Shown in pieces: positions 15,648-50,396 of a stretch of DNA of 64,000 nt. Under the pieces are notes generated by a model. The model worked only from the letters and a program-made list of their open reading frames with translations. It was not told the origin of the DNA and did not search any database. How positions within the stretch are numbered: position 1 is the first letter of the stretch; each line of letters begins with the position of its first letter. The DNA is taken from assembly GCA_030248215.1 (NCBI GenBank), contig JASANG010003345.1:434001-498000 (forward strand), in the 5' to 3' direction. The position numbers and the translations under genes are program-made. This DNA is from Enoplolaimus lenunculus. Lineage: Eukaryota.

Positions 15648-18600
15648 ATGACTCGTCAAACGAAACGCGCTGGAGCTGCCGTTACAGTTTCGTTCAGCTT
15701 GCTTGTGCTGTGTATTTTCCTAGTACTTAAAAAGGGCAATGATGTTCCTCAGGGTGAGTATGGAACGTTTTAGTTTTTTACCCCTGTAAAGATCAGGGGC
15801 GGAATGTTTTTCGGCGCGACTGCAATAAAGTAAGCTTAAGCTTTAGACTTTTTTTTTTCTTAGGCTAAGGCTTAGTTACGTTTTCCGTATGTGTAAGCTT
15901 ATTCTTGCAGTTTGGCTTAGGCTTTAGGCTTAGGAAAAGGCTTGTACTAACTGTTATGCTTGTGTTCATGACATTGGCCTCATTTCTATTAGATAAGTGC
16001 CTTTGATGACAGTCTTAAGTTTATGCTGAGAATTATGCTAGTCTCAGGCTCGGTATTATCAAGAGTGGATGATCACTCTTTATAACAAGAGTGTGCAACT
16101 GGGTACATTATGTGTATTAAAGAATGTACCAGCACGTGTTGCTTTTTGGCCTACCCCCTCAATCAGGGGGGGGGGTTAAGCAAGAGATTAACAGTATGCT
16201 TCAGTAAACCTACCCCCCCTAAACAACGGGGAGGGTTACAATTTCCTCCTTTACTAGAATATAAAACTGCATAAAGACCCCTAAACAAGGGGGGTAGACC
16301 AAAAACGCAACACGTCCGGGGTACATTCTTTAATACACAGAATGTACCCAATTGCACACTCTTGTTATAAAGAGTGATCATACAGCTTTGTTCCAAACAC
16401 GCTTGTTTGAAAGCGAAAAAACTCTGTCACATAAACTTTTTTACGCTACTTCGACATCAATATTTAACACTATAGAAAAACACGAAGAGCGTTTTGCCAT
16501 TTTGCTTAGGCTTAGCCTTAGCTTGACCCTAGAGTCTTTCGCTGACATTTAGACTTAGGCTCAGTATTATGCTTAGTGTAATGGTGCGTCCCTAAAATTA
16601 ACATTTGTATCCGTTATTTATGCGCTTGTTTATCCAATGGTCACAATTGTTTGTTTTATGTTTTAAAATTTTCAGCAAATGACCAACGTGATAAACGTCA
16701 AGTGATATCTGGCGGAAATCAACCGTTAGGTAAGTCATCACAGGTCGCGAGTGCAATGTTTTTTCAGGTTCAAACTTTCAAAAACTATAAATAAAATTGA
16801 CTTGGAGTTATTAAAATTAGCTAAGATCGCGAGCGTGGGATACTCTGATCTTTAAAGCCCGATTCACACGTACAAGTTTTTGCTGCGAGTCCTTGCAGCT
16901 GCAAATTGCACGCAAAACTTGCATTTTTTTCATCAGCCAATGAGAAAGCGGCCGCAATAAAATTCAGTGAACTTGCCATAGTTGTTCGCACATGTGAACT
17001 ATATTCCTAGGTATGATTTTTTAATGAATTATTTGCAGCTGCAAGTTTTCGAACGGGATTTTAGACAAAATTTGCAAGTTGCTGCTGCAATTTCTCGCAG
17101 GGAAAACTTGCACTTGTGAATAAGGCTTAAGACTTTTTTGCTATATGAACGTAGTAAAAATGAACTTTTTGAGAACTTTGACAATATCTGGTGATAAATG
17201 GTTTATACATAAATTTTGGCGAAACGGTTAAGTACTTATTTAGTAAAATTAACTAAACTAAAGAAACAGAAAAATTTTGTATTGCTAGCTCATGTAAAGA
17301 TCAGGGGCGCAGCGTTTTGCAGGACTGTAATAGTGTAACCTTAAGCATTAGACTAATTTTTTACTTTAGGCTTCGGCTAGACTTAGGTATAAGCGCATTT
17401 GTGCGCTTAAAATCAAACTTACGTTCAGGCTTAGACTTAAGAATATGCTTATACTACCGTTACGGCCTTGTTTTATATATTAGAAGTATTGCTATAATAT
17501 TTGAAGCAGGCAACCTAACGTTTTGTTGTACAATATTAAAAAATTACATGACCAATTACTTTTGTTTGCGCAGCTGGTCCGCATCTACAGGGAATCAAAG
17601 GGATCGCCGCCTATCCATAGGTCCCCAGAAACGTATTTTCCGAAACTTTACCCAAAATTTAGTTCCACGGCAATTTTATGTAAATGTCGAATAAAATTCC
17701 AGGAGGCTACTGCTCAACGCTAAACAGGGTACCGTTTATTAATCCTCAAAACAACATCGCTCAAGGATGTCCTGGCAATCGTGGATGTCCTTCGGGCTAT
17801 TCTTGTGAAACTTCGACGACGAACCAGTTCCTTTGTTGCGGTCCAATTGGTCGTCTCACTACTACAGGGTTGACTTATTATCGCGATCGAAACGGTCGAT
17901 TTCTCAGCTGTGGAAGCACTGCAAGCTCGTGTCCGGGCGCTGCTCGATGCGTCCCCACGTTCGGCGTCGGTCGTCAATTTATGTGCGCTGTCAGTGGTGG
18001 ATTTCCAATCAATCCAAATGTGGGCAACACATGCCCTCTCAATTATACTCCACGTTACATCAACGGACAACCACAGACATGCGCTATTAATCTTGCCGGC
18101 AGTTGTTCGCCACCGTTCGCGTGTGTTCAATCGTCGAATGGACGCACGTTTCTGTGTTGCCGTCCTACTATTTCTACCAATTTGTGCCCTGGCAATCAAC
18201 GAACCTTAATTGTAGGCGGTCAAACGCAATACTGTAACGTCCTGGGTCAGCCATGCGCTGCCCAAGGCTATACGTGCCAAAACGCTATGGCAGGCGGCCA
18301 GCGAATTTGTTGTGGTTTTGGCGAACTGGTCAATCAGCTGCGGTGTGCAAGCGGACAGCAGCCGTATTTGCTCGGCATTAATCCGTTTTATTGCACACCT
18401 CAAGCTGGTAATTGCCCGTCAGGCTACACTTGTGAGCTAGCGTCGACAGGGCAATATATTTGTTGTGCTGGCGCTGTGTCTGGTCAATGTCGAGACGGTA
18501 CTGCAGCTGAACCTGGAGTTTGCAGTCTCAATGGACCACTGACTCAATGTGGTTCTGGGTACGTATGTCAACAAACGGGATCGCCAGGTCGTGTTGCGTG

Positions 18601-19324
18601 TTGCCGCGAACCATTCTGTCCCCAGGGTGGAGTCTTCTACCCAGGAGCATCCTGCTCAGCGGCTAATTTGAACAGTTGTGGCGTGGGAAGAACTTGCGAG
18701 CAAACGTCGCCTGGTGTTTACGATTGTTGCGAACCTGGTAATATTCCAGGACGGTGTCGATCTGATAATTCAGCCGCAGACGGGCAATGTTCGCGTGTCG
18801 GTGCAGATTCTGAGTGTAGGGCTGGATTCTTTTGTGTCGCGACTGATAATAACGTACCAGGGTGTTGCCCTGGCGACGCACCTGGGCAGTGCCCATCAGG
18901 ATCACTGGAGCCAAACAACGCGTTATCTTGTGTTTCGGATAACGACTGTGGAATTGGGTACACATGCCAAGCGACTGATAACGGTATCCGAGGATGTTGT
19001 GGCGGTGGTGGTGGCGACCCAAACTCGTGTGCAAACAACGAGTTGCCCGATCTTCAAAACGGACAACCACGGCAGTGTAATCCAGCGAATCCGTCGTGTC
19101 GTCAAGGCTACTTGTGCCTTGACAATGGCGACGGATCGCGTACGATTTGCTGTCGCGGCCCCCGTTGTCCGGGCGGAAATACGATCGGAAGTGGTCCCGA
19201 CGGCAATCCGTTGCCGTGTACGCTCGGAGGAACCGAATGCCCAAGTGGTCAAACGTGCCGGACGTCGTCGAATTATCCAGACCGAGATATTTGTTGTCCG
19301 ACCAATCGACGAGTATTTTTTTAA
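15648..19324 (+). CDS. Secreted cysteine-repeat protein B (WR1/Lustrin-type Cys modules); predicted exons 15648-15753, 16676-16729, 17703-19324 (~593 aa)
   Basis: Hydrophobic N-terminus (VSFSLLVLCIFLVL). A 54-nt exon after a TTTTCAG acceptor encodes RDKR|Q (furin-like site). Phase-1 GT-AG introns. The 546-aa ORF 17684-19324 has about 11 six-cysteine modules ending in CC. Confidence 0.85.
16069..16381. mobile_element. Foldback/MITE with ~90-bp terminal inverted repeats in intron 1 of gene B
   Basis: ATGATCACTCTTTATAACAAGAGTGTGCAA... mirrored at the right end. Confidence 0.75.
16856..17127. mobile_element. PIF/Harbinger (Tourist)-like MITE
   Basis: TIR AGCCCGATTCACACGTACAAGTTTT/AAAACTTGCACTTGTGAATAAGGCT; TAA on both flanks. 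Confidence 0.7.
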
Positions 19325-20235
19325 TTTTAGGCAAAACAGAGAGTTATTTATTTTCATTTGTGTTGTTTTATATATTGTTGATTGAAATTTGACAAAATAT
19401 TTTTTGCCAAAATTAAACCGTTGGACAAATATTTCAGGTTGATTTCTGAACTTGTCAATTGTGTGTTGCACAAATCGCCTGGTAGATAGAATTTTGCACA
19501 CACACCGTCATCTGCGGATTTCAACCAATTAACAAAAAGGACAAATCAAATGCCGTAATCGTGTCAAATTTTGAATGGCTAACTAGAAAGTTATATCTAT
19601 CCACCAACTGGTGATAGGTGTTTTACACGTATTTAATAAGTATAGACAGTTACGCAGTTAATTGAAAGTCGTCCAATTATTCGGTAATCAAAATAATTGT
19701 TGTTATCCAAACAATTAACCACTATTCTCATTTGACTGCAGCACAACGAGCTGTATTTTTGAACATTTTTGTCAGTTTTCATGAGTGAAATTTGTTTACA
19801 AAAGTAATTTGTGCAAAAGCTGGAACGGTACGGAAGTTTTTTAAAGTCAAATTTTTGGCTAAAATCCGTGGTCAAAATTAAAATGATCCGCAACAAATTC
19901 GGTTACAGAATTAGGTGTTTAGTTGACTAAATATAGATGTAACAATTAAAATGCTTGTACAGGCAATACTTTTGTTAGAAAGCTTGTATTGGTCTCGCCT
20001 CAAAATTGGAATTAGCAACATTTTAAGGCAACAAAAGTTGTTGATGGCAAGAATTGCTTTTTAAGCACTGAAAGAATTATATGTTGGCTAAAATGCTCAT
20101 AGCAAAATTGTTGCTAAAAACATTTTTGCCAACATATAATTCTTTAAATGCCTAAACGTTTACTGGTACCATTTGTGTTGATTAATTCGCATTGCGCTCC
20201 AAATGTTGTTAAAGGCAAAAATGCTCTTTAGGCAT

Positions 20236-20850
20236 TTGAAGAATTATATGTTGGCAAAAATGTTTGTAGTAAGATTGAAGAATTATATGTTGGCAAAAAT
20301 GTTTGTAGTAAGATTGAAGAATTATATGTTGGCAAAAATGTTTGTAGATTATTGTTGCAAAAAGATTGAAGAATTATATGTTGGCAAAAATGTTTGTAGT
20401 AAGATTGAAGAATTATATGTTGGCAAAAATGTTTGTAGTAAGATTGAAGAATTATATGTTGGCAAAAATGTTTGTAGTAAGATTGAAGAATTATATGTTG
20501 GCAAAAATGTTTGTAGTAAGATTGAAGAATTATATGTTGGCAAAAATGTTTGTAGTAAGATTGAAGAATTATATGTTGGCAAAAATGTTTGTAGTAAGAT
20601 TGAAGAATTATATGTTGGCAAAAATGTTTGTAGTAAGATTGAAGAATTATATGTTGGCAAAAATGTTTGTAGTAAGATTGAAGAATTATATGTTGGCAAA
20701 AATGTTTGTATAGATTAAGAATTATATTGGCAAAAAGAATTATATGTTGGCAAAAATGTTTGTAGTAAGATTGAAGAATTATATGTTGGCAAAAATGTTT
20801 GTAGTAAGATTGAAGAATTATATGTTGGCAAAAATGTTTGTAGTAAGATT
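20236..20850. repeat. 39-bp minisatellite (GATTGAAGAATTATATGTTGGCAAAAATGTTTGTAGTAA)n, ~15 copies
   Basis: Direct inspection; partial forward copy near 20070 and an inverted copy near 20118-20146. Confidence 0.95.
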
Positions 20851-21708
20851 ATTGCTATAAACGTTTCTGCAAGATATAATTCTCGAAATGTCCAAACGTT
20901 TAGGTATCACTGGTATGAATTAATATGGCGCTCATTGGTGTATATACCAATAAATCATTATAACAGCTGTAAATATAAACATGTGTGTATCAAGATAAAT
21001 TCGTTGCTAAATATATTGAACTAAAAATATTTACACTAGTAAAACGTGGCTGTTTTAATATTTTCAACGATAGCATTATGATGCTAACGAAATATGCAAG
21101 AATTGTTCTGATTTTCTGTTAAATTTTTAGCCCATGTTACTTTTAGGGTTGTCCAGGTTTCTGATGGGTCCATAAACGTATCCATTGGCCCAATTTTTTA
21201 TCAAATTTTTGCACAGAAAAATGTTAATTTAGCTTCTGAAACATATTTTATTTGCATAATTGATTTTTATAACCTGACCATAACAGTAATAAAAGCATGT
21301 TCCTAAGCCTAAGCCTAAACGTAAGCCTAAGCGCAACAAAGAGCTTATACTTAAACCTAAGCCTGAGCTACTGGAACAAAGCCCAAATTAAATCGTAGGC
21401 GTTGGCAGCTTTATTTAAATATGCCAAACCAACAAGCTACTGATTTGAAATTGTAAGCGATCATGTTTCAGGCCTCAAATGAGCCATATTATGGTGTGAT
21501 CAAGAAATGACAATATGCATTAATATACTGCGACGTTAAAATTGGCAATTAAATTGCAATAATTTACACATCTTATTGCTAAAAATGTTATATTATCCAC
21601 TCAATAAATAGTATTTCTTTATTATTAGTAATTAATCTGCGTATTTTCAAGCAGAAACAATTTACATTGGTCAAGAATGATAAACAGCTTGTTTAAAGTC
21701 GATGACAA

Positions 21709-24444: not shown

Positions 24445-24649
24445 CACTGCAAAAATGGTGAGTCAAATTGACTCTCTCCGAAATAGGCTTTTCCGGACTA
24501 CACAAACTGAGTCAAATTCGGCTCCGCCAGAGTCAAATTCGACGGTTAGTTTAATTTTTAGTCTGGTGGAGTCGAATTTTGACTCAGTTTGCGTTGTCCG
24601 GAAAAGCCTATTTCCGAGAGAGTCAATTTGACTCACCATTTTTGCAGTG
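24445..24649. mobile_element. Palindromic CACTG-ended MITE family (~205 bp; CMC/EnSpm-like); other copies 1191-1390, 8396-8603, 14517-14734, degenerate ~52200-52354
   Basis: CACTGCAAAAATGGTGAGTCAAAT...ATTTGACTCACCATTTTTGCAGTG; internal GAGTCAAAT/ATTTGACTC repeats; TA on both flanks of the 8396-8603 copy. Confidence 0.8.
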
Positions 24650-28900: not shown

Positions 28901-30597
28901 TGTTTTGAAAGCTGATTACTAACTGGTAATAGGTGTTACGCAGTTTTGAGAATATCGGATTGGTTCAAACAAAAATTCTTTCAACATTTTGTCTATTGTT
29001 TTGAAACTTGTCAGTTAAATACTCTATCCGCTGGGGATCAGTGTTACTGATGGACCTGCACCCTGGAAGGCGTAGGATTATAATTAAGCTTTGGTTTAGG
29101 ATTAGGTTTGGTCTTTAGTATACGTACTACAATGTAATTTTGAGTGAGTTGATTTTAACACATAATGAGTTGAATACACTCAGAGGTCTGAGCTCTGAAA
29201 TATGTATTTCAGAACTCATAAAATTCTGAATTGATTGAACTCATTCTGAGTTAATTAATCAATTACTAAAAATTAAATCAGCTCAGAATGCGTTAATGTT
29301 TATCGTTATTACCTTACAAATAACCAGAAATAACTATTAATTATCTCTCTCTCAGTTGATTAATCAACTCATCGAAATTTGCAGTGTAGGCAGGCCTTTT
29401 CAATTAAACATCGCCATTGCTTTTAAGGCTGCTTAGAGTACCAAAATAGCAAGCACTGAAAGAAACCAAAAATGTCTTCCTTTTCGGTGAGTTCTATTTT
29501 ATTTTCAATTTATATTTAAAGGCGTGGTGACAGACGTATATCTTTTGCCTAAAAACAAGACGCGTATAACATTATTCTGCTCTGCTTTTTCAAATCATTA
29601 ATGATCATGCTTTCATTGACTAAAAATCTCTAAAATAAACCGCATAATTTTACTAGCCTACTCTGTTTTAGATAAACAAATGATGTAAAAAACAAGCTTT
29701 ACCTGCTAATTTTACTTAACCATCTTTGTGCTTTTAATATGAGCACAGGAACTGCTGACGGATAAACCAATATTGGTGAGGGGCATAAGATTTTTTAAGT
29801 CGAAATAATAGTCAAAATGTGGTTATTTAGGAAATTTCATACTGGATTTTTGTAGATTTTATTCTTAGAGTTCAAAGTAAATATAAATTTTAGATAGTTG
29901 ATTTTAGCAATTGCACCGAAGCGGCAAACTCTTTCGCCACTTTGTCAAATAAAGTACTTGTTCATTTTGCTTCCACATTAATGTTAATTAAGTGGAAGAC
30001 AAAATCGCTCCCACCAAGCCTAATTCTTGGATTTACTTTTGGGCAGCAAGCACTGCTAATATTAAAAATGTTGCTTTATTAATAAATTCCAATAGGAGAA
30101 TACATCCTTATCCCTCTGAATGCATCAGTAATAATATTTTTGAAACTAAAACTAAACAATAAGGATTAAAAAATTTATATACTATATACCAGGGTCTGAG
30201 CATTTCTGGTCTCTTTTAACCACGGGTTTATAGTTCCAACCCTACAAACCAGGCCCGTAGCCAGCTATCACTGCTAAGCGGGAGCTAAAATATTTTCAGG
30301 AGAGACATACAAGGGTTTTCGTTGACTTACAAACGAATTAAAATTAGCAAACACGGTTTTATGCACATTATGTGCTGTTTGTGTGATACAAAGGACGTCG
30401 GTGTAGAATATATACCTGGACCATTGCGTTACGTTATATATGGGTAGACATATTTAAGGTTTTAACTGGATTATCGGTCTGCACATTTCTATATGAATCC
30501 CGAAAAACACACCTTTGCAATAGCAAAACCCAAATAAGAGGAGTAATAAGAAGGGTCAGAAAGGGGAGTTCTTATTTAGAAGCCAATTCAATAAGTA

Positions 30598-31039
30598 GGT
30601 ACGACTGCCATGTGCATCCCATGCTTCTCTGTACATTGTGACGTGTACGTATGACGTGTTGAACAAATAAACAAACACGTCAATACAGTCAAACAACCAA
30701 TGATAGATCTGCAACACATGATTTGTAGCAGTCTCAACAAATAGGATTGCGGCACGTATGCGGTTACTTGGAACAACCATTAAGAATGCTGCAACACTAA
30801 ATCAAGCAGCAACCAATAATCGTTATCTTCTAGAATGATCCGTGAGGGCTATAAAAGTCCAGTAAAAACTTTGACATTAGTTAGTGTTTCGTTTTTCGTT
30901 TATTCGCAATTGTTGCTTTACCATCGTCGTTTGTTTCAATAAAATCCTTGTTTCATTCAACTGTTCGTTTCGTTCCGGTTTACGACTTACAGGTCTTGTT
31001 TCATTCAACTGTTCGTTTCATTCCGGTTTACGACTTACA
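30598..31039 (+). repeat. LTR 1 (442 bp; first base G instead of T)
   Basis: Matches LTR2/LTR3; TATAAAA 30850-30856, TTAGT Inr-like motif about 30877-30885, AATAAA 30938-30943, ends TTACA. Confidence 0.95.
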
Positions 31040-32461
31040 ATGGTGACCCCGACTAGGAACCGTCAACATTTGTTTAGCGCCGCCCCAGTGTTTTTCTCAA
31101 TCCTGGTTTCCGTGTTATCCGCGCTCGAGTTGCGTTCCGTTTCTTCGATCCACGCTGATCCCTCGACTGTTCGGGAACACTATGCCGAGTTACCGTGGGT
31201 CGTTACTCCGCCCCGCTATGCCTCGAGTTCAAGGGTATTCATGGTATCAATCGCAATCGGATTTTCCATCCGCGGAGTCCATGGCCTCGACAATCGTCAA
31301 GCCACGAGTTTACGGGTCCTCCTGTTGATCGGGTGCGTCGAACCGAACCCTGGCCCAGTCAATCTCTCACATCAAACGAAGGAAACGTTGGCGGGTATGC
31401 TCCGGGTACTACATGCGAGCGATCCATCATTCGCGGTCTCCGGAACAAAGGACGACATCATCACAATGCTGAGCCCACATGGCCCCGATATCCTGCAGTT
31501 GGCATTCAATCAGGTCTCGATGGCGCATGTACAAGCCGCGTCCGTGCCGGCAGGTGGGCAACCGGGTCCAAACGGAATCGCTCAAGCGGGTTCGGGTGAC
31601 ACGATTCAATTCCATCGATTGCCGCAATTCAACCCAAAGACGCCCCAATGTTGGTTCAATCAAGTCGAACAAGTCCTCGGGGCAATCGACGATGACGTCA
31701 AGAAGCGAAACATACTACGGGTGATCGACAACGGTATGATTCACGAGTCAGGTGTCAACCTCAATGGGTCTTATGCCGAGATCAAACGAACCCTCATCGA
31801 GTTTTATGCCGACAGCGACAATCGAAGGCTGCGCAAGCTTTTAGAAGAAAAAGACCTCAAAGGCCGCAAGCCCTCAAGTGCCCTCCGGGAACTGCTGGAA
31901 CTGGCCCCAAACAGCCCCGAATTGGTCCGTCTACGCTTCCTCGAGATTCTTCCGGAACAAATCCGGCTCACCCTCGTATCAATGGACAGCGTTTCGCTTG
32001 ACCAACTCGCACGAATCGCTGATGCAATGCTGGATATGGCCGATCCAAATCTGGTCAACCATATCAACCGTGAGCCCCAGTCATCATCAACCACATATGG
32101 GTTATGGCAATCCCCAACCTCGAACACAACCGGGTCCTGGAAAGCCTCATCCTCAACCGCATCCGGGTCTTGGCAATCCTCAATCGAAAAGCAGATCGCC
32201 GACTTGACAAAGGCCGTCCGCCAACTAACGAACAGAGATCGCTCCCGCGGTCGCAATTCACGGGTTCGGGCGAATGATCAAAACGGAGTCGGGTCACGCA
32301 ATAGTCAACGCCCCCATTCGAGGTCCCAATCGGCCAGACGTTCAAGCGGGTTGTGTTGGTATCACTTCAAATTTGGCGACGAAGCCCAGCGATGCCCCGG
32401 TGCCGGATTTTGCTCATACGACGGACAGTCTTCAAGCAATGCCGCGTCGGGAAACGGATAG
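31040..32461 (+). CDS. gag: Gag, unit 1, with N-terminal leader and 2A-like motif (start uncertain: ATG 31040 or 31241; frame open from 30881)
   Basis: LPQFNPKTPQCWFNQVE capsid-like N-terminal motif, KPS..LRELLELA motif, Arg/Ser-rich linker, CWYHFKFGDEAQRC..C zinc-knuckle variant. Confidence 0.9.
   Translation: MVTPTRNRQHLFSAAPVFFSILVSVLSALELRSVSSIHADPSTVREHYAELPWVVTPPRYASSSRVFMVSIAIGFSIRGVHGLDNRQATSLRVLLLIGCVEPNPGPVNLSHQTKETLAGMLRVLHASDPSFAVSGTKDDIITMLSPHGPDILQLAFNQVSMAHVQAASVPAGGQPGPNGIAQAGSGDTIQFHRLPQFNPKTPQCWFNQVEQVLGAIDDDVKKRNILRVIDNGMIHESGVNLNGSYAEIKRTLIEFYADSDNRRLRKLLEEKDLKGRKPSSALRELLELAPNSPELVRLRFLEILPEQIRLTLVSMDSVSLDQLARIADAMLDMADPNLVNHINREPQSSSTTYGLWQSPTSNTTGSWKASSSTASGSWQSSIEKQIADLTKAVRQLTNRDRSRGRNSRVRANDQNGVGSRNSQRPHSRSQSARRSSGLCWYHFKFGDEAQRCPGAGFCSYDGQSSSNAASGNG
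31041..31053 (+). promoter_or_regulatory. Primer-binding site complementary to tRNA-Trp 3' end (second copy 36287-36299)
   Basis: TGGTGACCCCGAC lies 1 nt after the LTR and has the same first 13 nt as the tRNA-Trp PBS of avian leukosis/sarcoma viruses. Confidence 0.88.
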
Positions 32462-32491
32462 ACCCCACCGCAAATTCAGATGGCGGTGGGG
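32449..32491 (+). promoter_or_regulatory. -1 ribosomal frameshift signal gag/pol (second copy 37695-37737)
   Basis: G_GGA_AAC slippery heptamer in the gag frame, 7-nt spacer, 9-bp stem CCCCACCGC/GCGGTGGGG; pol is in the -1 frame. Confidence 0.85.
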
Positions 32492-35400
32492 ACGTCAACT
32501 GCGTGTACATCGATGCTACCCCTGTCGGTCGTTTCATTGCCGATAGCGGGAGTGCCTTTTCCTTCATTCTGCCATCGATGGCGCTCAACATTCTACCTCT
32601 CCGTAATCAATCGTTCGGTGCGCATACCGCAAATGGGTCTCCCCTCAACATCAAGGGTACGTGCCGAATTCCATTCACGCTCCAGGGAATCCCGAAACCC
32701 TTCCAGTGAACGTTCTTTGTAGCCGATGTCACTAATCCTATCCTGAGTCGCGATTTCTTCCGCCGCAACGGGTTTGCTGTCGATTGCGTCAACAACCGCC
32801 TAATCACCGTATCTCCTACAATGCCCCAGCGTCCCACGTCATCTTTCGGTCCCACCGACGCAATGACGGTCAGCTGTGCGACGACTCAACCACCTTATCG
32901 AGTCAACATGCCTGAGCAACTTCCGACGGTCCAGCAGCTGTTCGCCGAGTTTCCGAACATCTTTAAACCGGTCGACGCCTTCGCTTCCGCCCGCCATAAC
33001 ATACAACATCATATCGTCACGGTGGGCCCACCCTGTTTCGAACGACCTCGTCGAATCGTCGGTGCGAAACTCGCTGTCGCAAAAAGGGTCTTCGCGGAAT
33101 GGGAAGCCAGTGGGGTCGTGTATCGAGGAGAATCACCTTACGCATCTGCCCTTCATATGGCTCCAAAGGCAGATCCAAAGACACCATGGCGACCTACGGG
33201 AGATTACAGGAAGCTTAACCGACAAACCGTGCCCGACCGGTACCCGATGCCGAACCTCAACGATTTGTCAGGCGATCTTCATGGGTCTGCGGTATTTTCA
33301 AAGCTCGATCTCGTTTGCGCGTACACCCAAATTCCGGTAGCTGTCAGTGATCAACCCAAGACTGCGGTAACAACTCCCTTCGGGCTTTTCCTTTTCCGGC
33401 GTATGTTTTTTGGATTTCGCAACGCCGCCCAAACGTTCCAACGTTTGATGGACTCGATATTTGCCGACGTTCCGTTCGTCAGGGTATATCTTGACGATAT
33501 TCTTGTGGCCAGCACCAATCCCGAGCAACATCTAGAACACCTTCGTTGTGTAATCAGCCGTCTGGATATGCATGGCCTCCGTCTGCGCCCCGACAAATGC
33601 TTGCTATTCAGCTCAAAGGTGCAGTTCCTTGGTGTTGAAATTGACAATACAGGAATCCGACCAATTCCCGACAAAGTCAAGTCAATAGCAGAGTTCAAGC
33701 GACCAGAAACACTTAAAGGTGTCCGTCGTTTTCTTGGAATGGCAGGGTTCTATCACCGATTTGTTCCCGGGTTCTCAAAAGTCGCCGCCCCGCTCACCGA
33801 TTTGACACGCGGAAAGAAGGATAAAGGCAACTATAAAATTGAATGGAACGCCGACGCCATCAACGCCTTTGACAAACTCAAAGTCGCTCTCTCAAATGCT
33901 GTAACGCTGATTCACCCGCACCCAAAGGCCCAAATTCAGTTGGTGACAGATGCATCGAGTGTCGCTGTGGGTGCAGTCCTGAATCAAACACACAATGGAG
34001 TTACCGAGCCGCTTGCCTTTTATTCCGAAAAGCTGTCTGAGCTGGAATCCCGCAAATCAGCATTCGATCGTGAATTACTGGCGATTTACAAAGCCCTAAA
34101 GCATTTCTCGTGGTTACATGGTTCCACATTTGTCATCCGGACGGATCACAAGCCCTTGGTTCATGCTCTCGCTATGGCAAACCCGTCAGCACAACAATCC
34201 AGGTGGTTATCCTTCATTTCGGAGTTTGGTTGCACAATCGAACATGTAGCTGGCGCGGACAATGTTGTTGCGGATGCCTTATCCCGGCCTGTGTGCTCAA
34301 TTTCGGCAGCGTTCGATAACAAACTGGCCGACGAACAAGCAGCGGACAAAGCTTTGATCACGTTCATCAACTCTACAACTCTTCCAATAAAACAACTTCT
34401 AGTCGACGGCAAAACAGTGTATTGCGACGCTTCGCGAGCCAAGCTACGTCCTTATGTTCCAACTACATCTCGATTTTCTGTATTTCAATCGATACATAAT
34501 CTGGCTCATCTCGGATCAAGGGCAACCCTTCATGAAGTCTCTGAACAGTACGTATGGCCAAGTATGAATCGCGATGTAAAACTTTGGTGCCGCGAATGCT
34601 TGGAATGTCAGCGTAACAAGGTGGGCCGTCATACGAAAACTCCAGTGGGCACAATTCCAACAACCGGACGCCTTCAGACGGTACACGTCGATATTGTGGG
34701 TCCTTTTCCTCCTTCAGGCGGATTCAGCTACATAGTGACAATGATCGACCGGTTCAGCCGACGGCCCGAAGCAGTTCCTGTTCCAGACATCACAACCGAA
34801 TCCGTTGCAACTGCATTAATTTCTGGATGGATCAGTCGTTTCGGAGTCCCTCGAACGATTATTACTGATCGTGGAACCCAATTCGAGTCATCCCTGTGGT
34901 CAGCACTGATGGAAAGTTTAGGAATCGAACGCCGTCGGACGACAGCATACCACCCAGCGAGCAACGGAGCTGTCGAACGTTTTCACCGCACACTGAAAAC
35001 GGGTCTTCGAGCTCACTGCACAACCCGCTCATGGACTACATCACTTCCCCTGGTACTCCTGGGAATCCGGTCGGGTCTCAACGACAAGGGTTTCACACCT
35101 TGCCAAATGGTTCTTGGTGCAAGCGTCGATCTACCACATCATTATTTCACACCGGATACCACAAACAATTATGCCAATGTAAATGATTTGATGTCCAAGC
35201 TTTTCTCGTCTATCACTCGACTAAATGCTCCAGAGCGAAAACATGCCGTTCCTTGTTACGTACCAGCTGAGCTGAAGACTGCCAGTCACGTATGGATTCG
35301 CGACGACACCATCAAAACTGCCTTGAAGCCGCGTTATAATGGCCCGTACGAAATCAAGAATCTTGGTGACAAAACCGTGGTTGTCTCCATCAAAGGGATT

Positions 35401-35499
35401 GATGAACGTATTAGTCTCGACCGCGTGAAGCCCGCTTTTCTACACATGGATATACAACAAACGACGACTCAAAATCCGACACCTTCAGCGCAGCATCCT

Positions 35500-35742
35500 G
35501 ATGGAGAAAGACTGGTCTTGGCTAAAGTCAGAAATTGGCCTCAATGGCCAGCGATAATCATCTCACCTGAATCAACACCGCTAGCGACCAGCAAACGCCC
35601 TCCGAACAGCCTCCCTGTCAAGTTCTTCGGCACCAATCGCCTGGCATTCGTCCCGATGTCTGCAATAATGCCTTTCCAGGACGACTCTACAGTAAAACGA
35701 AAAGATCTTCAACGTGCATACGCGCTAGCACAGCAACACATA
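35500..35742 (+). other. PWWP domain at the C-terminus of integrase
   Basis: LVLAKVRNWPQWPA...LPVKFFGTNRLAFV...I.PF...KRKDLQRA.ALA matches the PWWP (HDGF/LEDGF-like) pattern. Confidence 0.85.
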
Positions 35743-35827
35743 ACGCAGAGGCTACCGCATCCGAATATGGTCAAACAGGAGACAGTCCGTTTTCAAGATC
35801 CAATGGTAACATTATAGGGCTCCGCTT

Positions 35828-35839
35828 AAAACGAGGGGG
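35828..35839 (+). promoter_or_regulatory. Polypurine tract (second copy 40995-41006)
   Basis: AAAACGAGGGGG just upstream of LTR2 and LTR3. Confidence 0.75.
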
Positions 35840-35843
35840 CCTC

Positions 35844-36285
35844 TGTACGACTGCCATGTGCATCCCATGCTTCTCTGTACATTGTGACGTGTACGTATGA
35901 CGTGTTGAACAAATAAACAAACACGTCAATACAGTCAAACAACCAATGATAGATCTGCAACACATGATTTGTAGCAGTCTCAACAAATAGGATTGCGGCA
36001 CGTATGCGGTTACTTGGAACAACCATTAAGAATGCTGCAACACTAAATCAAGCAGCAACCAATAATCGTTATCTTCTAGAATGATCCGTGAGGGCTATAA
36101 AAGTCCAGTAAAAACTTTGACATTAGTTAGTGTTTCGTTTTTCGTTTATTCGCAATTGTTGCTTTACCATCCTCGTTTGTTTCAATAAAATCCTTGTTTC
36201 ATTCAACTGTTCGTTTCGTTCCGGTTTACGACTTACAGGTCTTGTTTCATTCAAGTGTTCGTTTCATTCCGGTTTACGACTTACA
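35844..36285 (+). repeat. LTR 2 (shared central LTR)
   Basis: TGTACG...TTACA, preceded by a PPT and followed by a PBS. Confidence 0.95.
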
Positions 36286-37707
36286 ATGGTGACCCCGACT
36301 AGGAACCGTCAACATTTGTTTAGCGCCGCCCCAGTGTTTTTCTCAATCCTGGTTTCCGTGTTATCCGCGCTCGAGTTGCGTTCCGTTTCTTCGATCCACG
36401 CTGATCCCTCGACTGTTCGGGAACACTATGCCGAGTTACCGTGGGTCGTTACTCCGCCCCGCTATGCCTCGAGTTCAAGGGTATTCATGGTATCAATCGC
36501 AATCGGATTTTCCATCCGCGGAGTCCATGGCCTCGACAATCGTCAAGCCACGAGTTTACGGGTCCTCCTGTTGATCGGGTGCGTCGAACCGAACCCTGGC
36601 CCAGTCAATCTCTCACATCAAACGAAGGAAACGTTGGCGGGTATGCTCCGGGTACTACATGCGAGCGATCCATCATTCGCGGTCCCCGGAACAAAGGACG
36701 ACATCATCACAATGCTGAGCCCACATGGCCCCGATATCCTGCAGTTGGCATTCAATCAGGTCTCGATGGCGCATGTACAAGCCGCGTCCGTGCCGGCAGG
36801 TGGGCAACCGGGTCCAAACGGAATCGCTCAAGCGGGTTCGGGTGACACGATTCAATTCCATCGATTGCCGCAATTCAACCCAAAGACGCCCCAATGTTGG
36901 TTCAATCAAGTCGAACAAGTCCTCGGGGCAATCGACGATGACGTCAAGAAGCGAAACATACTACGGGTGATCGACAACGGTATGATTCACGAGTCAGGTG
37001 TCAACCTCAATGGGTCTTATGCCGAGATCAAACGAACCCTCATCGAGTTTTATGCCGACAGCGACAATCGAAGGCTGCGCAAGCTTTTAGAAGAAAAAGA
37101 CCTCAAAGGCCGCAAGCCCTCAAGTGCCCTCCGGGAACTGCTGGAACTGGCCCCAAACAGCCCCGAATTGGTCCGTCTACGCTTCCTCGAGATTCTTCCG
37201 GAACAAATCCGGCTCACCCTCGTATCAATGGACAGCGTTTCGCTTGACCAACTCGCACGAATCGCTGATGCAATGCTGGATATGGCCGATCCAAATCTGG
37301 TCAACCATATCAACCGTGAGCCCCAGTCATCATCAACCACATATGGGTTATGGCAATCCCCAACCTCGAACACAACCGGGTCCTGGAAAGCCTCATCCTC
37401 AACCGCATCCGGGTCTTGGCAATCCTCAATCGAAAAGCAGATCGCCGACTTGACAAAGGCCGTCCGCCAACTAACGAACAGAGATCGCTCCCGCGGTCGC
37501 AATTCACGGGTTCGGGCGAATGATCAAAACGGAGTCGGGCCACGCAATAGTCAACGCCCCCATTCGAGGTCCCAATCGGCCAGACGTTCAAGCGGGTTGT
37601 GTTGGTATCACTTCAAATTTGGCGACGAAGCCCAGCGATGCCCCGGTGCCGGATTTTGCTCATACGACGGACAGTCTTCAAGCAATGCCGCGTCGGGAAA
37701 CGGATAG
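36286..37707 (+). CDS. gag: Gag, unit 2 (intact, 2A-like motif at 36577-36603)
   Basis: Near-identical to unit 1 at +5246 offset. Confidence 0.9.
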   Translation: MVTPTRNRQHLFSAAPVFFSILVSVLSALELRSVSSIHADPSTVREHYAELPWVVTPPRYASSSRVFMVSIAIGFSIRGVHGLDNRQATSLRVLLLIGCVEPNPGPVNLSHQTKETLAGMLRVLHASDPSFAVPGTKDDIITMLSPHGPDILQLAFNQVSMAHVQAASVPAGGQPGPNGIAQAGSGDTIQFHRLPQFNPKTPQCWFNQVEQVLGAIDDDVKKRNILRVIDNGMIHESGVNLNGSYAEIKRTLIEFYADSDNRRLRKLLEEKDLKGRKPSSALRELLELAPNSPELVRLRFLEILPEQIRLTLVSMDSVSLDQLARIADAMLDMADPNLVNHINREPQSSSTTYGLWQSPTSNTTGSWKASSSTASGSWQSSIEKQIADLTKAVRQLTNRDRSRGRNSRVRANDQNGVGPRNSQRPHSRSQSARRSSGLCWYHFKFGDEAQRCPGAGFCSYDGQSSSNAASGNG

Positions 37708-40700
37708 ACCCCACCGCAAATTCAGATGGCGGTGGGGACATCAACTGCGTGTACATCGATGCTACCCCTGTCGGTCGTTTCATTGCCGATAGCGGGAGTG
37801 CCTTTTCCTTCATTCTGCCATCGATGGCGCTCAACATTCTACCTCTCCGTAATCAATCGTTCGGTGCGCATACCGCAAATGGGTCTCCCCTCAACATCAA
37901 GGGTACGTGCCGAATTCCATTCACGCTCCAGGGAATCCCGAAACCCTTCCAGTGGACGTTCTTCGTAGCCGATGTCACTAATCCTATCCTGAGTCGCGAT
38001 TTCCTCCGCCGCAACGGGTTTGCTGTCGATTGCGTCAACAACCGCCTAATCACCGTATCTCCTACAATGCCCCAGCGTCTCACGTCATCTTTCGGTCCCA
38101 CCGACGCAATGACGGTCAGCTGTGCGACGACTCAACCACCTTATCGAGTCAACATGCCTGAGCAACTTCCGACGGTCCAGCAGCTGTTCGCCGAGTTTCC
38201 GAACATCTTTAAACCGGTCGACGCCTTCGCTTCCGCCCGCCATAACATACAACATCATATCGTCACGGTGGGCCCACCCTGTTTCGAACGACCTCGTCGA
38301 ATCGTCGGTGCGAAACTCGCTGTCGCAAAAAGGGTCTTCGCGGAATGGGAAGCCAGTGGGGTCGTGTATCGAGGAGAATCACCTTACGCATCTGCCCTTC
38401 ATATGGCTCCAAAGGCAGATCCAAAGACACCATGGCGACCTACGGGAGATTACAGGAAGCTTAACCGACAAACCGTGCCCGACCGGTACCCGATGCCGAA
38501 CCTCAACGATTTGTCAGGCGATCTTCATGGGTCTGCGGTATTTTCAAGCTCATCTCGTTTGCGCGTACACCCAAATTCCGGTAGCTGTCAGTGATCAACC
38601 CAAGACTGCGGTAACAACTCCCTTCGGGCTTTTCCTTTTCCGGCGTATGTTTTTTGGATTTCGCAACGCCGCCCAAACGTTCCAACGTTTGATGGATTCG
38701 ATATTTGCCGACGTTCCGTTCGTCAGGGTATATCTTGACGATATTCTTGTCGCCAGCACCAATCCCGAGCAACATCTAGAACACCTTCGTTGTGTAATCA
38801 GCCGTCTGGATATGCATGGCCTCCGTCTGCGCCCCGACAAATGCTTGCTATTCAGCTCAAAGGTGCAGTTCCTTGGTGTTGAAATTGACAATACAGGAAT
38901 CCGACCAATTCCCGACAAAGTCAAGTCAATAGCAGAGTTCAAGCGACCAGAAACACTTAAAGGTGTCCGTCGTTTTCTTGGAATGGCAGGGTTCTATCAC
39001 CGATTTGTTCCCGGGTTCTCAAAAGTCGCCGCCCCGCTCACCGATTTGACACGCGGAAAGAAGGATAAAGGCAACTATAAAATTGAATGGAACGCCGACG
39101 CCATCAACGCCTTTGACAAACTCAAAGTCGCTCTCTCAAATGCTGTAACGCTGATTCACCCGCACCCAAAGGCCCAAATTCAGTTGGTGACAGATGCATC
39201 GAGTGTCGCTGTGGGTGCAGTCCTGAATCAAACACACAATGGAGTTACCGAGTCGCTTGCCTTTTATTCGAAAAGCTGTCCGAGCTGGATCCCGCAAATC
39301 AGCATTCGATCGTGAATTACTGGCGATTTACAAAGCCCTAAAGCATTTCTCGTGGTTACATGGTTCCACATTTGTCATCCGGACGGATCACAAGCCCTTG
39401 GTTCATGCTCTCGCTATGGCAAACTCGTCAGCACAACAATCCAGGTGGTTATCCTTCATTTCGGAGTTTGGTTGCAAATCGAACATGTAGCTGGCGCGGA
39501 CAATGTTGTTGCGGATGCCTTATCCCGGCCTGTGTGCTCAATTTCGGCAGCGTTCGATAACAAATAAAACCCTATATCAAAACCACACCTTAAGGGAGTT
39601 CCTGGCTCCATCTAGTCTCTCTTAGAACTTAACTTAGGCTTAGGCGTGGCTACAAAGCGTAGAAAATGTTAAAATCGATGTTATGGCGGCTGTGTCCGCA
39701 ATGTCAAACTTACCTGGGCCCTACGTGGCCATTGAATAATGTTGTATAATTGGTATAGCTGGATTTGCGGTTAACGACTTAGCTAGTCTAAGTCATCATG
39801 TCGTGAGTGTCCGACATGAGCGTGTTGTTGTTGTTGTTAGTACCGGATGTGTGGCTCTCGATCTCAACCGCATTGCGGACACCCAATTGTGGGTGTCGGC
39901 AAAAATGCAATTGAGGTCGAGATGCCGATTTGGGTAGCCAGGACCGGAATCAGTCTTGGTTTTGTTTTCCTACAAATCGGTTGGCTTTTATTGGTTGGCG
40001 GTGAGCGTTTATTTTTACATTGCTTCTTGAATTTTGGCTTGCGTTTGGAAATTTTAATAAGTAAGGTCGAACTGAAGTAATTTAAGATTGTCACGGTGGC
40101 ATAAGCATGTGAAGGAAACTACGGGATATCGGTTTAATCGGCGTTGCGCAAGGCGCGGTATCACCCAGTATAGAATACTGGTGGCATGTGTTAAAGGAAA
40201 CTTGGGGTATTAAAGGAAACCTGGGAAAAAGTAGTCTAATAAATCTAACGGGGTTAGATTTATTATTCTACAACGGCTGGGCCAAATCTAACGGGGTTAG
40301 ATTGGTCGGAAATTTGGTGTAACTCTAACGGGGTTAGAGTACACGGTTTAATGGGGTGTAATTCTAACGGGGTTAGAATTGCACGGATTCTGGAAAACGG
40401 CAAAAGTATTGGGTACGGTAAAGCCAGTGGCTGGATTAAATCAGATTCAGACGTCGGCTTTAAGGATTCCGGCTCGGGTTACCAGTTAAATTGCATAACC
40501 TGTGATTTGCTGGCCTTAATTTTGGGTATTTTGTGTCATACGGGTTGCGGGTTGGGATTATAATAAACATTTACCGGCCGCGTTTTACTAAATCAGAGCG
40601 ATACGCATACATCGAGGAAAGAACTATACAGGCGATACAGGATACAGGCTTAAGTCTAAATCACGAACTTCTCACAGACTGGTCTTGGCTAAAGTCAGAA

Positions 40701-40984
40701 ATTGGCCTCAATGGCCAGCGATAATCATCTCACCTGAATCAACACCGCTAGCGACCAGCAAACGCCCTCCGAACAGCCTCCCTGTCAAGTTCTTCGGCAC
40801 CAATCGCCTGGCATTCGTCCCGATGTCTGCAATAAAGCCTTTCCAGGACGACTCTACAGTAAAACGAAAAGATCTTCAACGTGCATACGCGCTAGCACAG
40901 CAACACATAACGCAGAGGCTGCCGCATCCGAATATGGTCAAACAGAAGACAGTCCGTTTTCAAGATCCAATGGTAACATTATAG
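37695..40984 (+). pseudogene. pol: Pol, unit 2: PR intact, RT/RH frameshifted, integrase replaced by foreign sequence 39565-40675, PWWP tail 40676-40984 retained
   Basis: Five 1-bp deletions relative to unit 1 (two near 38545-38552, one each near 39268, 39289, 39476). Homology to unit 1 stops at 39564 and resumes at 40676. Confidence 0.85.
39565..40675. other. 1111-bp non-homologous, G/T-rich, hairpin-dense segment replacing integrase
   Basis: No similarity to unit 1 on either strand; multiple stem-loops including four TCTAACGGGGTTAGA cores. Confidence 0.8.
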
Positions 40985-41010
40985 GGCTCCGCTTAAAACG
41001 AGGGGGCCTC

Positions 41011-41452
41011 TGTACGACTGCCATGTGCATCCCATGCTTCTCTGTACATTGTGACGTGTACGTATGACGTGTTGAACAAATAAACAAACACGTCAATACA
41101 GTCAAACAACCAATGATAGATCTGCAACACATGATTTGTAGCAGTCTCAACAAATAGGATTGCGGCACGTATGCGGTTACTTGGAACAACCATTAAGAAT
41201 GCTGCAACACTAAATCAAGCAGCAACCAATAATCGTTATCTTCTAGAATGATCCGTGAGGGCTATAAAAGTCCAGTAAAAACTTTGACATTAGTTAGTGT
41301 TTCGTTTTTCGTTTATTCGCAATTGTTGCTTTACCATCCTCGTTTGTTTCAATAAAATCCTTGTTTCATTCAACTGTTCGTTTCGTTCCGGTTTACGACT
41401 TACAGGTCTTGTTTCATTCAACTGTTCGTTTCATTCCGGTTTACGACTTACA
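41011..41452 (+). repeat. LTR 3
   Basis: TGTACG...TTACA, preceded by a PPT and followed by the AGTA TSD. Confidence 0.95.
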
Positions 41453-43330
41453 AGTATTTATATATCGCCAATCAAAGTTCGTAAATGGATAGTGTCCAGA
41501 AATCTTAACTTTGACCCGAATGGTCAATTATTGTCACTACAGTACGACAAAATTAAAATTTTTTTTACTTCGGGATCCAGCCAGTCTTATATTTATTTTT
41601 CACTAAAAATACAAAAATATTTCGTTGTCTTAATTTAAAATCGAAGCTAACAATGGTTCATAAAAAAACTAACAATATATTTTTCAATTAAACTTATTGT
41701 TTCCATGCAAGCAATACCGTTGCATGAATAAAAAATATCCAATGCACAAATCCCAATCGATTCAAAACAGAATTGGAAATAAAATCTCTTAAGCTCCATA
41801 CATATTTGGTTTCAACCAGTTTCGCTGTGTCACGGGTTTGCTGCTTTCTCCCTAACCTTTCATGCGATTACTGTATACAACATAAAGCCTAAAGTCTTAG
41901 GGAGTCCCGCGGAAATAAAGATGGTTCGCCTCTGAAACTAACTTGTGCCTCATATTGAATAATCTTCTCGTTTGCAGTCCGCTTTCTATGATTACTAAAC
42001 TGCTTCAGTGTTCTAATCAATAACCTTGCTCACACATGTAGGCGTTATGTTAAACTCAAGCCAAGTGCGTAGCTAGGATTTTATTTCGCGCAAGCATAAA
42101 CCACATTCAATAGATTTTTTCTAGTGAGAAAATTTTTTTCAACCTTTGCTAGCAACTATTCTACAATCTGTAAAATTACCTTTCATAGAAATCCCGCAGA
42201 AATTTCGTGGGATATATCATCGTTATCCCACCCCATTGCATACGTCACTGCCCTACGTATCAACGGCGATTTGTTTATTCGCTGTGTAGGCGTAGGTATA
42301 TCGCAACACAGTCGGTTGCTGTTCGCTAAAAACTTTCACAAGTTTGCGTCACAAATTGGTATACTTTGGACTGCACACACCAGGAAAGATTCAAGTTACC
42401 AGTTTATATTTTATAATGAAGTAAAGTGCAAAACTATTGAATTTTTATTTTTATCAAAGAATCGAGTTACGACTTTGTTTTTTCAAAATATTTACCATAT
42501 GGACATTATCTTCCCACGAATAAAATGTACGCCACTTGAGCGAAGCAAAATTCGTTTCGTTATGTAGAATAGCCGTATTTTAATATATTTTTCATTTGTT
42601 AATTTTATTAACTACAGCTGAAATCGGCATTACATTATAAACACTACAAATGATGGCATTTGACAAGAATTGGTGTGTTTTTCAATATAAAATTCGTTTC
42701 AACGTTTACAATTCCCTTCTTTTTTAGAATTGGTGCTATTTTTGTTATGTTTTTGAATATAAATTTCGTTCCCAAGTTTAAAATTGCCTTTTTTCTTCAT
42801 ATTGTTAACTAGAGCCTTTATTCTCTGCTGGTGCTGATGATAATTGCGATAGACCCTTTCTCAAATGAAGACGTTTAAGGCCGCGGCTGGGTCGAGCATC
42901 AAGCTTCTACAGCTTAATGGTGTTGGTAAACGCGTCTTACACGTGTGGTTGCAATTCCAGTCATGGCTTGAAATTATTTCTTCTATTCGAAATAGTCAAC
43001 AGTTATGTGAGAGCGGGTTTGAATGCGTTTCTTGGGTTGCATATCAATGCTGTGCTTTAGTGCTCCCATATCCCCAGTTGTGGGTCGGTTTAAAAAGGAA
43101 CCGGTGGTTGGAAAACAAAATCAATTTAAAAACTCTATTGGATCCAAAAATACAGTATTTTGAAAAGTTTCGATACACAAAATGCGCCTGACTTCTCGCT
43201 CGCATGGCTCGCGAACTTGACTAAGTATGGACTCATGTAAAATATATTGTCTCAAAATCAACCTATGCTTTTTACAGTTGATTTTATACATTGGCAGATC
43301 TAAAGGACATTTCTGCACATCGGATCCTAC

Positions 43331-49357: not shown

Positions 49358-50396
49358 ATGTCATATCCTCCATATTTGTTTATTGCTTTCGTTCTTATGA
49401 TACATCCTGTTCAAGCAAACAATTCATTCTTTTTAGCTGGCAGCAAACCCGATACTAATGCGTTGCTGTAAGTATTTAAATTGAAATTAAAAGTAAATAT
49501 CCAATTCTCAATTGACCAATTAACACGGCGACACAAAACATTACTCTTTTAACCGCATAAGGGTTTAGCGTAGCTGAAGCGCTTGACTATACAGCGCACC
49601 TTCTAAAATAATAGTTGCCGAGATTAGCCCGTATGATCGCTCAGAAATAAAATTGCAGGAACCCGTCATGTAATAGAGGGCCAATGTAAAAAACAGGGGC
49701 CAAACAGTATTATAAGCATATTCCTAAGCGTAAGCCTAAGCCTAAAGCCGAAGCGTAAGAATGAGCATATTCCTAAGCCTAAGCCTAAGCCTTTCGCCCT
49801 GATCTTTACATGGGTTCAATAGGTTTTTTGTATAGACTCAGCGGTTGTGCCATCACTAACCTATTGCGTTTTATATTAACCTAAGGTTTCGATATTGTTG
49901 TCCTAGGGTTAATTCGTTACTCAATTTTGTGGATTCCGTGACAAAATTATGGTTTACGGCGCTGTGGGCGTAGGCAAAATTTTGGTAAGGAGAATTACGC
50001 TGCTAAAATTTCGACGGAGCTGTGTCCTGTGTTGTAAACTGGAACCGTGTCTAAAAAGACAACGCCGTTGAATGGCGCATAAAAATGTTTTGCTTTCACT
50101 GTTTCAGATCACCAAAGCTGTCAAATTCTCACAATCTGTCAACCACGTACAGACGGCAGCGATCAAATGCTGAATCAAACGGTGTGCAGCTTAGACGACG
50201 CGGCTCAGTACGAGCCACTGTGACGCCATCAAAACTCAAAAGCCAATACCGTCATTTAATCAAAAACTGCTACTTAACCCCGGTTCAGTGTAGTATTTGG
50301 AAGCATTCTCAAATCAGAATTGTACTCCGAAAGCCGAAAAAACACTCCACTTTGAAAAAAAATCAAAATATAACTACTTTGCTGATTAAATTTTAA
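49358..50396 (+). CDS. Putative allatostatin-C/somatostatin-like neuropeptide precursor 1; exons 49358-49467, 50108-50396 (~132 aa)
   Basis: Signal peptide MSYPPYLFIAFVLMIHPVQA; phase-2 intron GTAAGT...TTTCAG; basic cleavage sites; KNCYLTPVQC motif (Cys-to-Cys 50268-50291). Confidence 0.7.

Follow-up and report, generated by a model that had tools for sequence, protein, structure and literature searches.

The Pol protein of a Gypsy retrotransposon in the window, the whole stretch of 64,000 nucleotides of the Enoplolaimus lenunculus contig JASANG010003345.1 that was analysed, ends with a PWWP domain that follows the integrase in frame, and five divergent relatives carry the same fusion. Integrase–PWWP is a real, conserved, and apparently undescribed design that extends the reader-tipped integrase. 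We lean towards the view that the PWWP domain remains part of the mature integrase and serves to anchor the integration complex on nucleosomes, with a bias to H3K36-methylated chromatin. The further-reaching proposal that the integrase reads H3K36-methylated nucleosomes and targets transcribed gene bodies, which would be the first natural integrase–PWWP fusion and would match, for active chromatin, what chromoviruses represent, is put forward tentatively and is in our judgement slightly more doubtful than probable.

The peptide in which a first-pass annotation had recognized a PWWP pattern forms the in-frame end of a Pol frame of 1035 aa (32710–35817, forward strand) that contains, according to Pfam, RT, RNase H, H2C2, rve, and PWWP in this order. 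The PWWP domain comprises Pol residues 934–1010 (35509–35739, forward strand; E 2.1e-13 within Pol), and the isolated domain scored 55.9 bits with an E of 6.4e-15 against PF00855, the gathering cut-off of which is 25.6. The annotated arrangement of a GPY motif (35341), a Thr/Gln/Pro linker, and a PWWP domain at the end of Pol is thus correct. The element has the following features:

30594–30597, forward strand: left target-site duplication AGTA, identical to the 4 bases after the last LTR (41453–41456)
30598–31039, forward strand: LTR 1, 442 bp, from LTR comparison
31040–32461, forward strand: gag frame of copy 1, with a 105-aa hydrophobic leader, a 2A-like motif, and Gag
31041–31054, forward strand: primer-binding site of the tRNA-Trp type, matching that given for the CsRn1 clade in PMC2582038
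32305–32709, forward strand: protease part of pol, with DSG at 32542 and, in copy 1, an in-frame stop at its end
32354–32413, forward strand: CHCC knuckle of the copy 1 Gag, which also contains DUF7041
32449–32491, forward strand: predicted −1 frameshift signal, consisting of a gag-frame slippery heptamer and a 9-bp hairpin behind it (frame check, fold centroid)
32710–35439, forward strand: Pol of copy 1 with RT, RNase H, HHCC finger, DDE integrase core (D-35-E spacing), and GPY module (Pfam, motif positions)
35440–35508, forward strand: polar low-complexity linker between GPY and PWWP, 23 aa in the window copy (family alignment)
35509–35739, forward strand: PWWP domain fused to the integrase (Pfam, solved-structure search, AlphaFold2 model, fold searches)
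35527, 35536, 35545, and 35623, forward strand: codons of the PWWP cage
35638, forward strand: codon of the PWWP rim Arg
35695–35703, forward strand: KRK
35740–35817, forward strand: short Pol tail containing a V-x-F motif and ending in the stop codon
35828–35839, forward strand: polypurine tract, from the sequence
35844–36285, forward strand: LTR 2, common to both tandem units
36286–41010, forward strand: internal region of copy 2
41011–41452, forward strand: LTR 3, with the right-hand target-site duplication behind it

The first-pass annotation had proposed a structure prediction alongside the PF00855 comparison, and both gave a PWWP domain. An AlphaFold2 model of the domain, built from six sequences, had a mean pLDDT of 79.2 and showed five strands and a helix. 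In Foldseek, the top rows were the PWWP domains of HRP-2 and NSD3, and in VIA-align the model was superimposed on the BRPF1 PWWP domain with a Z of 10.5 and an rmsd of 2.1 over 86 aligned residues. Among the top 19 VIA-align rows, 18 were titled PWWP or LEDGF-type PWWP, the remaining one being an RBB1NT domain; apart from this domain, which reached 9.2, non-PWWP Tudor and SH3-like folds had Z values of at most 5.3. A 385-aa model of integrase plus PWWP had a poor core (pLDDT 52.6) and served the first fold search only. On the sequence level, the top matches among solved structures were the PWWP domains of LEDGF, HRP-3, and HRP-2, with E values from 8.7e-8 to 7.8e-7.

The PWWP domain of LEDGF binds by means of a cage of M15, Y18, W21, and F44 together with a basic surface that contacts the DNA of nucleosomes (PMC3663649). 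In the window copy these four positions are V, W, W, and F: V940 aligns with M15, and W943, W946, and F972 align with Y18, W21, and F44, so that the three aromatic cage positions are kept, as had been annotated. They are also kept in five of the six members of the family described below, whereas the cage is lost in P0058, the frame of which is still open. The annotated KRK is present at 35695–35703, and its match to LEDGF K73–K75 is suggested by extrapolation, as the printed alignments stop earlier. The net charges of the six PWWP domains are +8, +10, +8, +3, +5, and +2.

The rim of the cage differs from that of LEDGF. At the positions of LEDGF H48 and E49, the five members with an intact cage have N-R, G-K, N-R, G-R, and D-R, and the equivalent of E49 is therefore Arg or Lys in all five. 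In LEDGF, the exchanges H48A and E49A were reported to abolish mainly the methyl specificity (PMC3663649), and in HRP3 the exchange E53A weakened binding 5.7-fold (PMC6547440). DNMT3B also has a basic residue at the E49 position, preceded two places before by an Asp that is Thr in the elements, and as DNMT3B is described as localizing to H3K36me3 via its PWWP domain (PMC7615734), reading of H3K36 methylation is still possible despite the changed rim. With its basic rim, the cage may possess a reading specificity of a new kind.

As regards the origin of the domain, the annotated term "LEDGF-like" fits the window copy, which matched LEDGF/HRP best in the search of solved-structure sequences (35.6 bits versus 24 for NSD3), but it is not clearly suited to the family, as a profile of the six members gave practically the same scores with NSD3 PWWP2 (40.0 bits), HRP3 (39.9 bits), and LEDGF (39.7 bits). 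The PWWP domain of P0003 alone was most similar to those of MSH6 and DNMT3B. By these comparisons, LEDGF is not clearly the donor.

The element is arranged in tandem as LTR–internal–LTR–internal–LTR (30598–41452) inside one target-site duplication and is, as judged from its sequence, a recent CsRn1-like Gypsy insertion. The three 442-bp LTRs (starting at 30598, 35844, and 41011) differ pairwise by 2, 1, and 1 bases, and the family is young, though both copies in the window are incomplete. The AGTA duplication on both sides holds if the first base of LTR 1, a G and not a T, is a substitution. Classification as CsRn1-like, already made in the first-pass annotation, agrees with the tRNA-Trp primer-binding site, the CHCC knuckle, the 4-bp duplication, the GPY motif, the −1 gag/pol overlap, and the lack of env, which are described for the CsRn1 clade (CsRn1, PwRn1, AgCR1-14) in the consulted part of PMC2582038. 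There are also differences. The accessible text of that paper found no chromodomain in the clade and reports no reader, whereas our element has a PWWP domain after GPY. Compared with the pattern C-X2-H-X9-C-X3-C, the Gag knuckle agrees in its CHCC order and its first two spacers, but the last spacer is 5 instead of 3, the latter being found in all eight relatives with a Gag; imperfect knuckles are also noted within the clade (PMC2582038). The LTR ends read TGT...ACA, each followed by an A of ambiguous assignment, and may or may not conform to the pattern of the CsRn1 clade, TGT...AAA or ATA. The predicted frameshift signal had a z of −0.76 when the whole fragment was folded, which is not significant, and scanning the window for Rfam families and tRNAs gave no matches. 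The in-frame stop between protease and RT is specific to copy 1, as it is found neither in copy 2 nor in the contigs of the sequencing runs X1–X3.

A further difference from the CsRn1 clade is that the gag frame contains a motif resembling 2A/StopGo (31319–31357 and 36565–36603, forward strand), which divides the 105-aa hydrophobic leader, whose ATG overlaps the primer-binding site, from the 368-aa Gag. It agrees with eight of the nine positions of G-D-[VI]-E-x-N-P-G-P (PMC3708506), with the Asp replaced by Cys, and about 0.0002 such cores would be expected by chance in the gag frame. In the accessible part of PMC3708506, 2A motifs are reported for non-LTR elements, Gypsy is unmentioned, and the Asp is described as important for activity.

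A search of Gypsy Pol proteins for further fusions, as had been suggested in the first-pass annotation, was carried out by HMMER with integrase plus PWWP in a 50%-identity library. It found 65,863 proteins at E 0.001, the best 150 of which were examined, 27 of them by a Pfam scan. Five of these 150 had a PWWP domain behind the integrase, namely P0003, P0005, P0014, P0058, and P0093, all of them singletons from Logan or JGI; P0058 was below the Pfam PWWP cut-off with 16.5 bits, and the other four were above it. As the query with integrase plus PWWP favoured fusion proteins, we ranked the relatives again on the integrase alone, and the five fusion proteins took the first to fifth places among 142 scored, with P0003 tied with the PWWP-less P0007. 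In an integrase tree from 180 columns that excluded the PWWP domain (52 rows, namely the window copy, P0095, and the top 50 out of 144), the six PWWP members were found on one branch with a support of 98/93, together with P0012, which is truncated and ends at the GPY motif. With RT-RNase H only, P0003 was the nearest of 42 (512 versus 405 bits). The annotation had allowed for the domain being absent from other copies of the family; instead, five divergent relatives possess it.

The mean pairwise identity within the family was 61% for the core half of the integrase, 50% for the GPY module, 39% for the PWWP barrel, and 20% for the linker, which varies in length from 23 to 70 aa. At integrase identities of 45–57% among the PWWP members, the better conservation of the PWWP barrel compared to the linker implies long purifying selection. 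The simplest reading of this distribution is that the PWWP domain was gained once, in the ancestor of the clade.

Other searches added no further members. A word-index search with Pol residues 860–1035 yielded none at E 0.001 among 198 candidates, and a PWWP profile applied to 7752 longer candidates recovered only four known members, with P0014 being missed by this lossy index. Among 285 near-length candidates, P0152 had a weak PWWP match (E 0.26) and was rejected as unrelated-looking. In viral contigs, none of 19 pattern matches was related, and of 342 integrase relatives in metagenome contigs, the best 80, mostly distant and several of them cut short, had no PWWP domain. As a side aspect, residues 642–706 of P0101, in the interval between RNase H and integrase, weakly matched MLLE, the C-terminal domain of poly(A)-binding protein (E 5.4e-5, below cut-off).

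We also inspected the integrase tails, which were usable in 100 of 151 proteins. In the 88 PWWP-less tails among P0002–P0151, an RVxF pattern, which we take to be PP1-docking-like, occurred 36 times (2.6 expected from shuffles). In the PWWP members, a V-x-F/I is kept after the PWWP domain, and two of the six have the strict form. A basic R-x-G-R was present in 54 of the 88 PWWP-less tails (2.3 expected) and in none of the six PWWP members. A literature search on the integrase-tail motif found nothing.

With regard to known systems, the PWWP domain occupies the position at which chromoviruses carry their chromodomain. This had been claimed in the first-pass annotation for a non-chromovirus element, and up to an E of 1, Pfam indeed recognized PWWP and no chromodomain. 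In chromoviruses such as MAGGY, a histone reader of the Royal family is likewise encoded in cis behind GPY and is thought to guide insertion (bioRxiv 2021.11.30.470311, PMC3605345). Unlike these, our element has a PWWP reader and a primer-binding site, Gag knuckle, and target duplication of the CsRn1 type, and its predicted mark is that of active genes, whereas that of chromoviruses is H3K9me. The element works like a chromovirus but is not a member of this group. The second comparison is HIV-1, in which a PWWP domain of the same fold with the three cage aromatics links the integrase to nucleosomes (PMC3663649, PMC2706977, PMC10018349). However, LEDGF/p75 is a host protein that acts in trans via its integrase-binding domain, whereas the PWWP domain of the element is present in cis, and the rim Glu of LEDGF is Arg or Lys in the elements. 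Pfam found no integrase-binding domain in Pol, and the element therefore does not belong to the LEDGF-type trans tethers.

The capture of readers by transposons is in itself a known theme: a survey of 172 genomes lists 823 gene models in which a chromatin domain is joined to a transposon domain, with PHD and Chromo predominating (bioRxiv 2021.11.30.470311). The main text, as far as accessible, names PHD, Chromo, SNF2_N, SET "and others", and its two mentions of PWWP are unrelated to fusions; its Supplementary Table 6 may list PWWP. Our literature search, which covered mostly titles and the beginnings of abstracts, with subscription papers and Repbase largely outside, found no natural integrase–PWWP fusion and, in line with the first-pass annotation, no description of this architecture for CsRn1-like elements. 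As to PWWP in the Gypsy and integrase literature, the checked passages of three papers contain only LEDGF-type mentions, and the word PWWP is absent from a recent Gypsy survey (PMC13524379) and from a paper on engineered integrases (PMC5415309).

Because the cage aromatics are kept in five of the six members and the domain is basic, we regard a nucleosome tether in cis as the best reading of this domain. According to the mechanism that we propose, a host gene would have supplied the PWWP domain a single time, to the ancestor of the clade, where it was inserted behind the GPY module and ahead of the short terminal V-x-F motif. A −1 frameshift would generate Gag-Pol, from which the protease would free the integrase with the GPY module, the flexible linker, and the PWWP domain still attached. 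The PWWP domain's basic surface would then grip nucleosomal DNA while the cage takes up a methyl-lysine, as in LEDGF, and several integrase subunits could provide the avidity that offsets the weak affinity of a single PWWP domain. Insertions would consequently be enriched near nucleosomes that bear the methyl-lysine. A tether that prefers H3K36 methylation is supported by the fusion as such, the PWWP fold, the kept cage, the basic charge, and the conservation in a clade of six elements, as well as by the report that a chromodomain at the same position, the C-terminus of a Gypsy integrase, targets a histone mark (bioRxiv 2021.11.30.470311). It is weakened by the basic equivalent of E49 in all five members with an intact cage and by the loss of the cage in P0058. 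The single insertion in the window is separated by over 8 kb from the nearest exon-like stretch found, and 53 short host frames in the window had no Pfam match above cut-off; this distance neither supports nor refutes a bias.

The same basic rim residue and the cage loss in P0058 speak for a cis tether that is indifferent to H3K36 methylation, binds nucleosomal DNA or another methyl-lysine, and raises the efficiency of integration without choosing gene bodies, an explanation that we consider possible but rather doubtful. Such a tether would have replaced the basic R-x-G-R tail that is common in the relatives, in agreement with the occurrence of this motif in 54 of the 88 PWWP-less tails and in none of the PWWP members. 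It would also be in line with the reports that recruitment of HRP3 is mainly driven by DNA (PMC6547440) and that in HIV tethering as such, and not the particular ligand, matters and suffices (PMC2706977). However, the six members without R-x-G-R are not six independent cases, as they belong to one clade, the sister P0007 of which also lacks the motif. Moreover, the three cage aromatics have been kept in five of six members across integrase identities of 45–57%, and the equivalent of the first of them in LEDGF, Y18, is surface-exposed and affects specificity more than folding (PMC3663649); both points speak against an indifferent tether.

A role of the PWWP domain apart from target choice appears improbable to us. 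In such a scenario, the domain would be cut off by the protease or work on Pol before integration, for example by binding nucleic acid in the particle, by keeping Pol on chromatin until mitosis, or by competing with host readers. The long, variable, and polar linker (23–70 aa) could indeed be cut, and PWWP domains bind DNA without sequence preference (PMC3663649, PMC6547440), but the family alignment of the linker shows nothing conserved that resembles a cleavage motif, and the position of the domain is that of the chromodomain in chromoviruses (bioRxiv 2021.11.30.470311, PMC3605345, PMC3350952). An origin of the fusion as a chimera of the assembly, or as a neutral host-gene passenger in one copy, could be suspected from the rearrangement of copy 2 and the stop before RT in copy 1. 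This is extremely improbable and, in our view, refuted, as the fusion is common to five divergent relatives in one integrase clade (98/93), the join is bridged by contigs of X1 and X2, and the PWWP domain is better conserved than the linker.

The mentioned contigs stem from three DNA runs, X1–X3, which represent at most two samples of one study and are possibly the source of the window itself. The integrase–PWWP join is bridged by one contig of X1 (33853–35840) and one of X2 (34673–35840). The depth of the element contigs in X1 and X2 was a few-fold above that of the flanks, which, though no copy number, points to a low-copy family. Contigs of other runs also spanned both junctions of 30598–41452 with the flanks, their depth being roughly that of a single copy. 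Copy 2 differs from copy 1 at 17 sites over 3.3 kb, 5 of which are indels. In its integrase segment, 1186 bp are replaced by 1111 bp of other DNA (39565–40675), leaving an orphaned PWWP-coding stretch at 40676–40984 (forward strand). The right end of the replacement is a repeat of very high depth in the runs X1–X3, and no contig among the matches listed spanned the replaced segment; the replacement may be a real rearrangement or an assembly error. Records 18 and 19 of run X3 contain a variant that is about 95–97% identical over the PWWP region (40676–40978), which suggests a second subfamily in the same species. Across PWWP and tail, 6 of the 12 listed differences of this variant are at third codon positions, too few to test selection.

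The choice of insertion sites by retroelements has long been debated, and the tethers that are understood are few. An integrase that naturally has its own PWWP domain would represent a convergence with the HIV–LEDGF system and would extend the chromovirus design to a second class of readers. As LTR elements of flies are reported to favour H3K36me3 regions by an unknown tether (PMC10018349), a case with a cis-encoded PWWP domain is a useful model, and by comparison with PWWP-less relatives it permits a test within one genome of whether a reader of H3K36 methylation suffices to bias insertion.

Outside the element, two similar open stretches without Pfam match (50202–50321 and 56425–56550; 55% over 42 aa) may be an exon pair or a repeat. 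Dispersed repeats rich in TTAGGC-like units (for example 6144–6255, 49702–49806, and 63444–63555) and short elements whose termini are long inverted repeats (for example 1193–1388, 8402–8596, and 24445–24649) occur at many sites of the window. Taken with the cysteine-rich genes named below, the TTAGGC-rich repeats tentatively suggest that the host, an animal, is a nematode. A tandem array with a 39-bp unit is located at 20147–20920, and two paralogous cysteine-rich genes with Lustrin_cystein repeats are found at 3060–4214, 6411–6803, and 17684–19324 on the forward strand.
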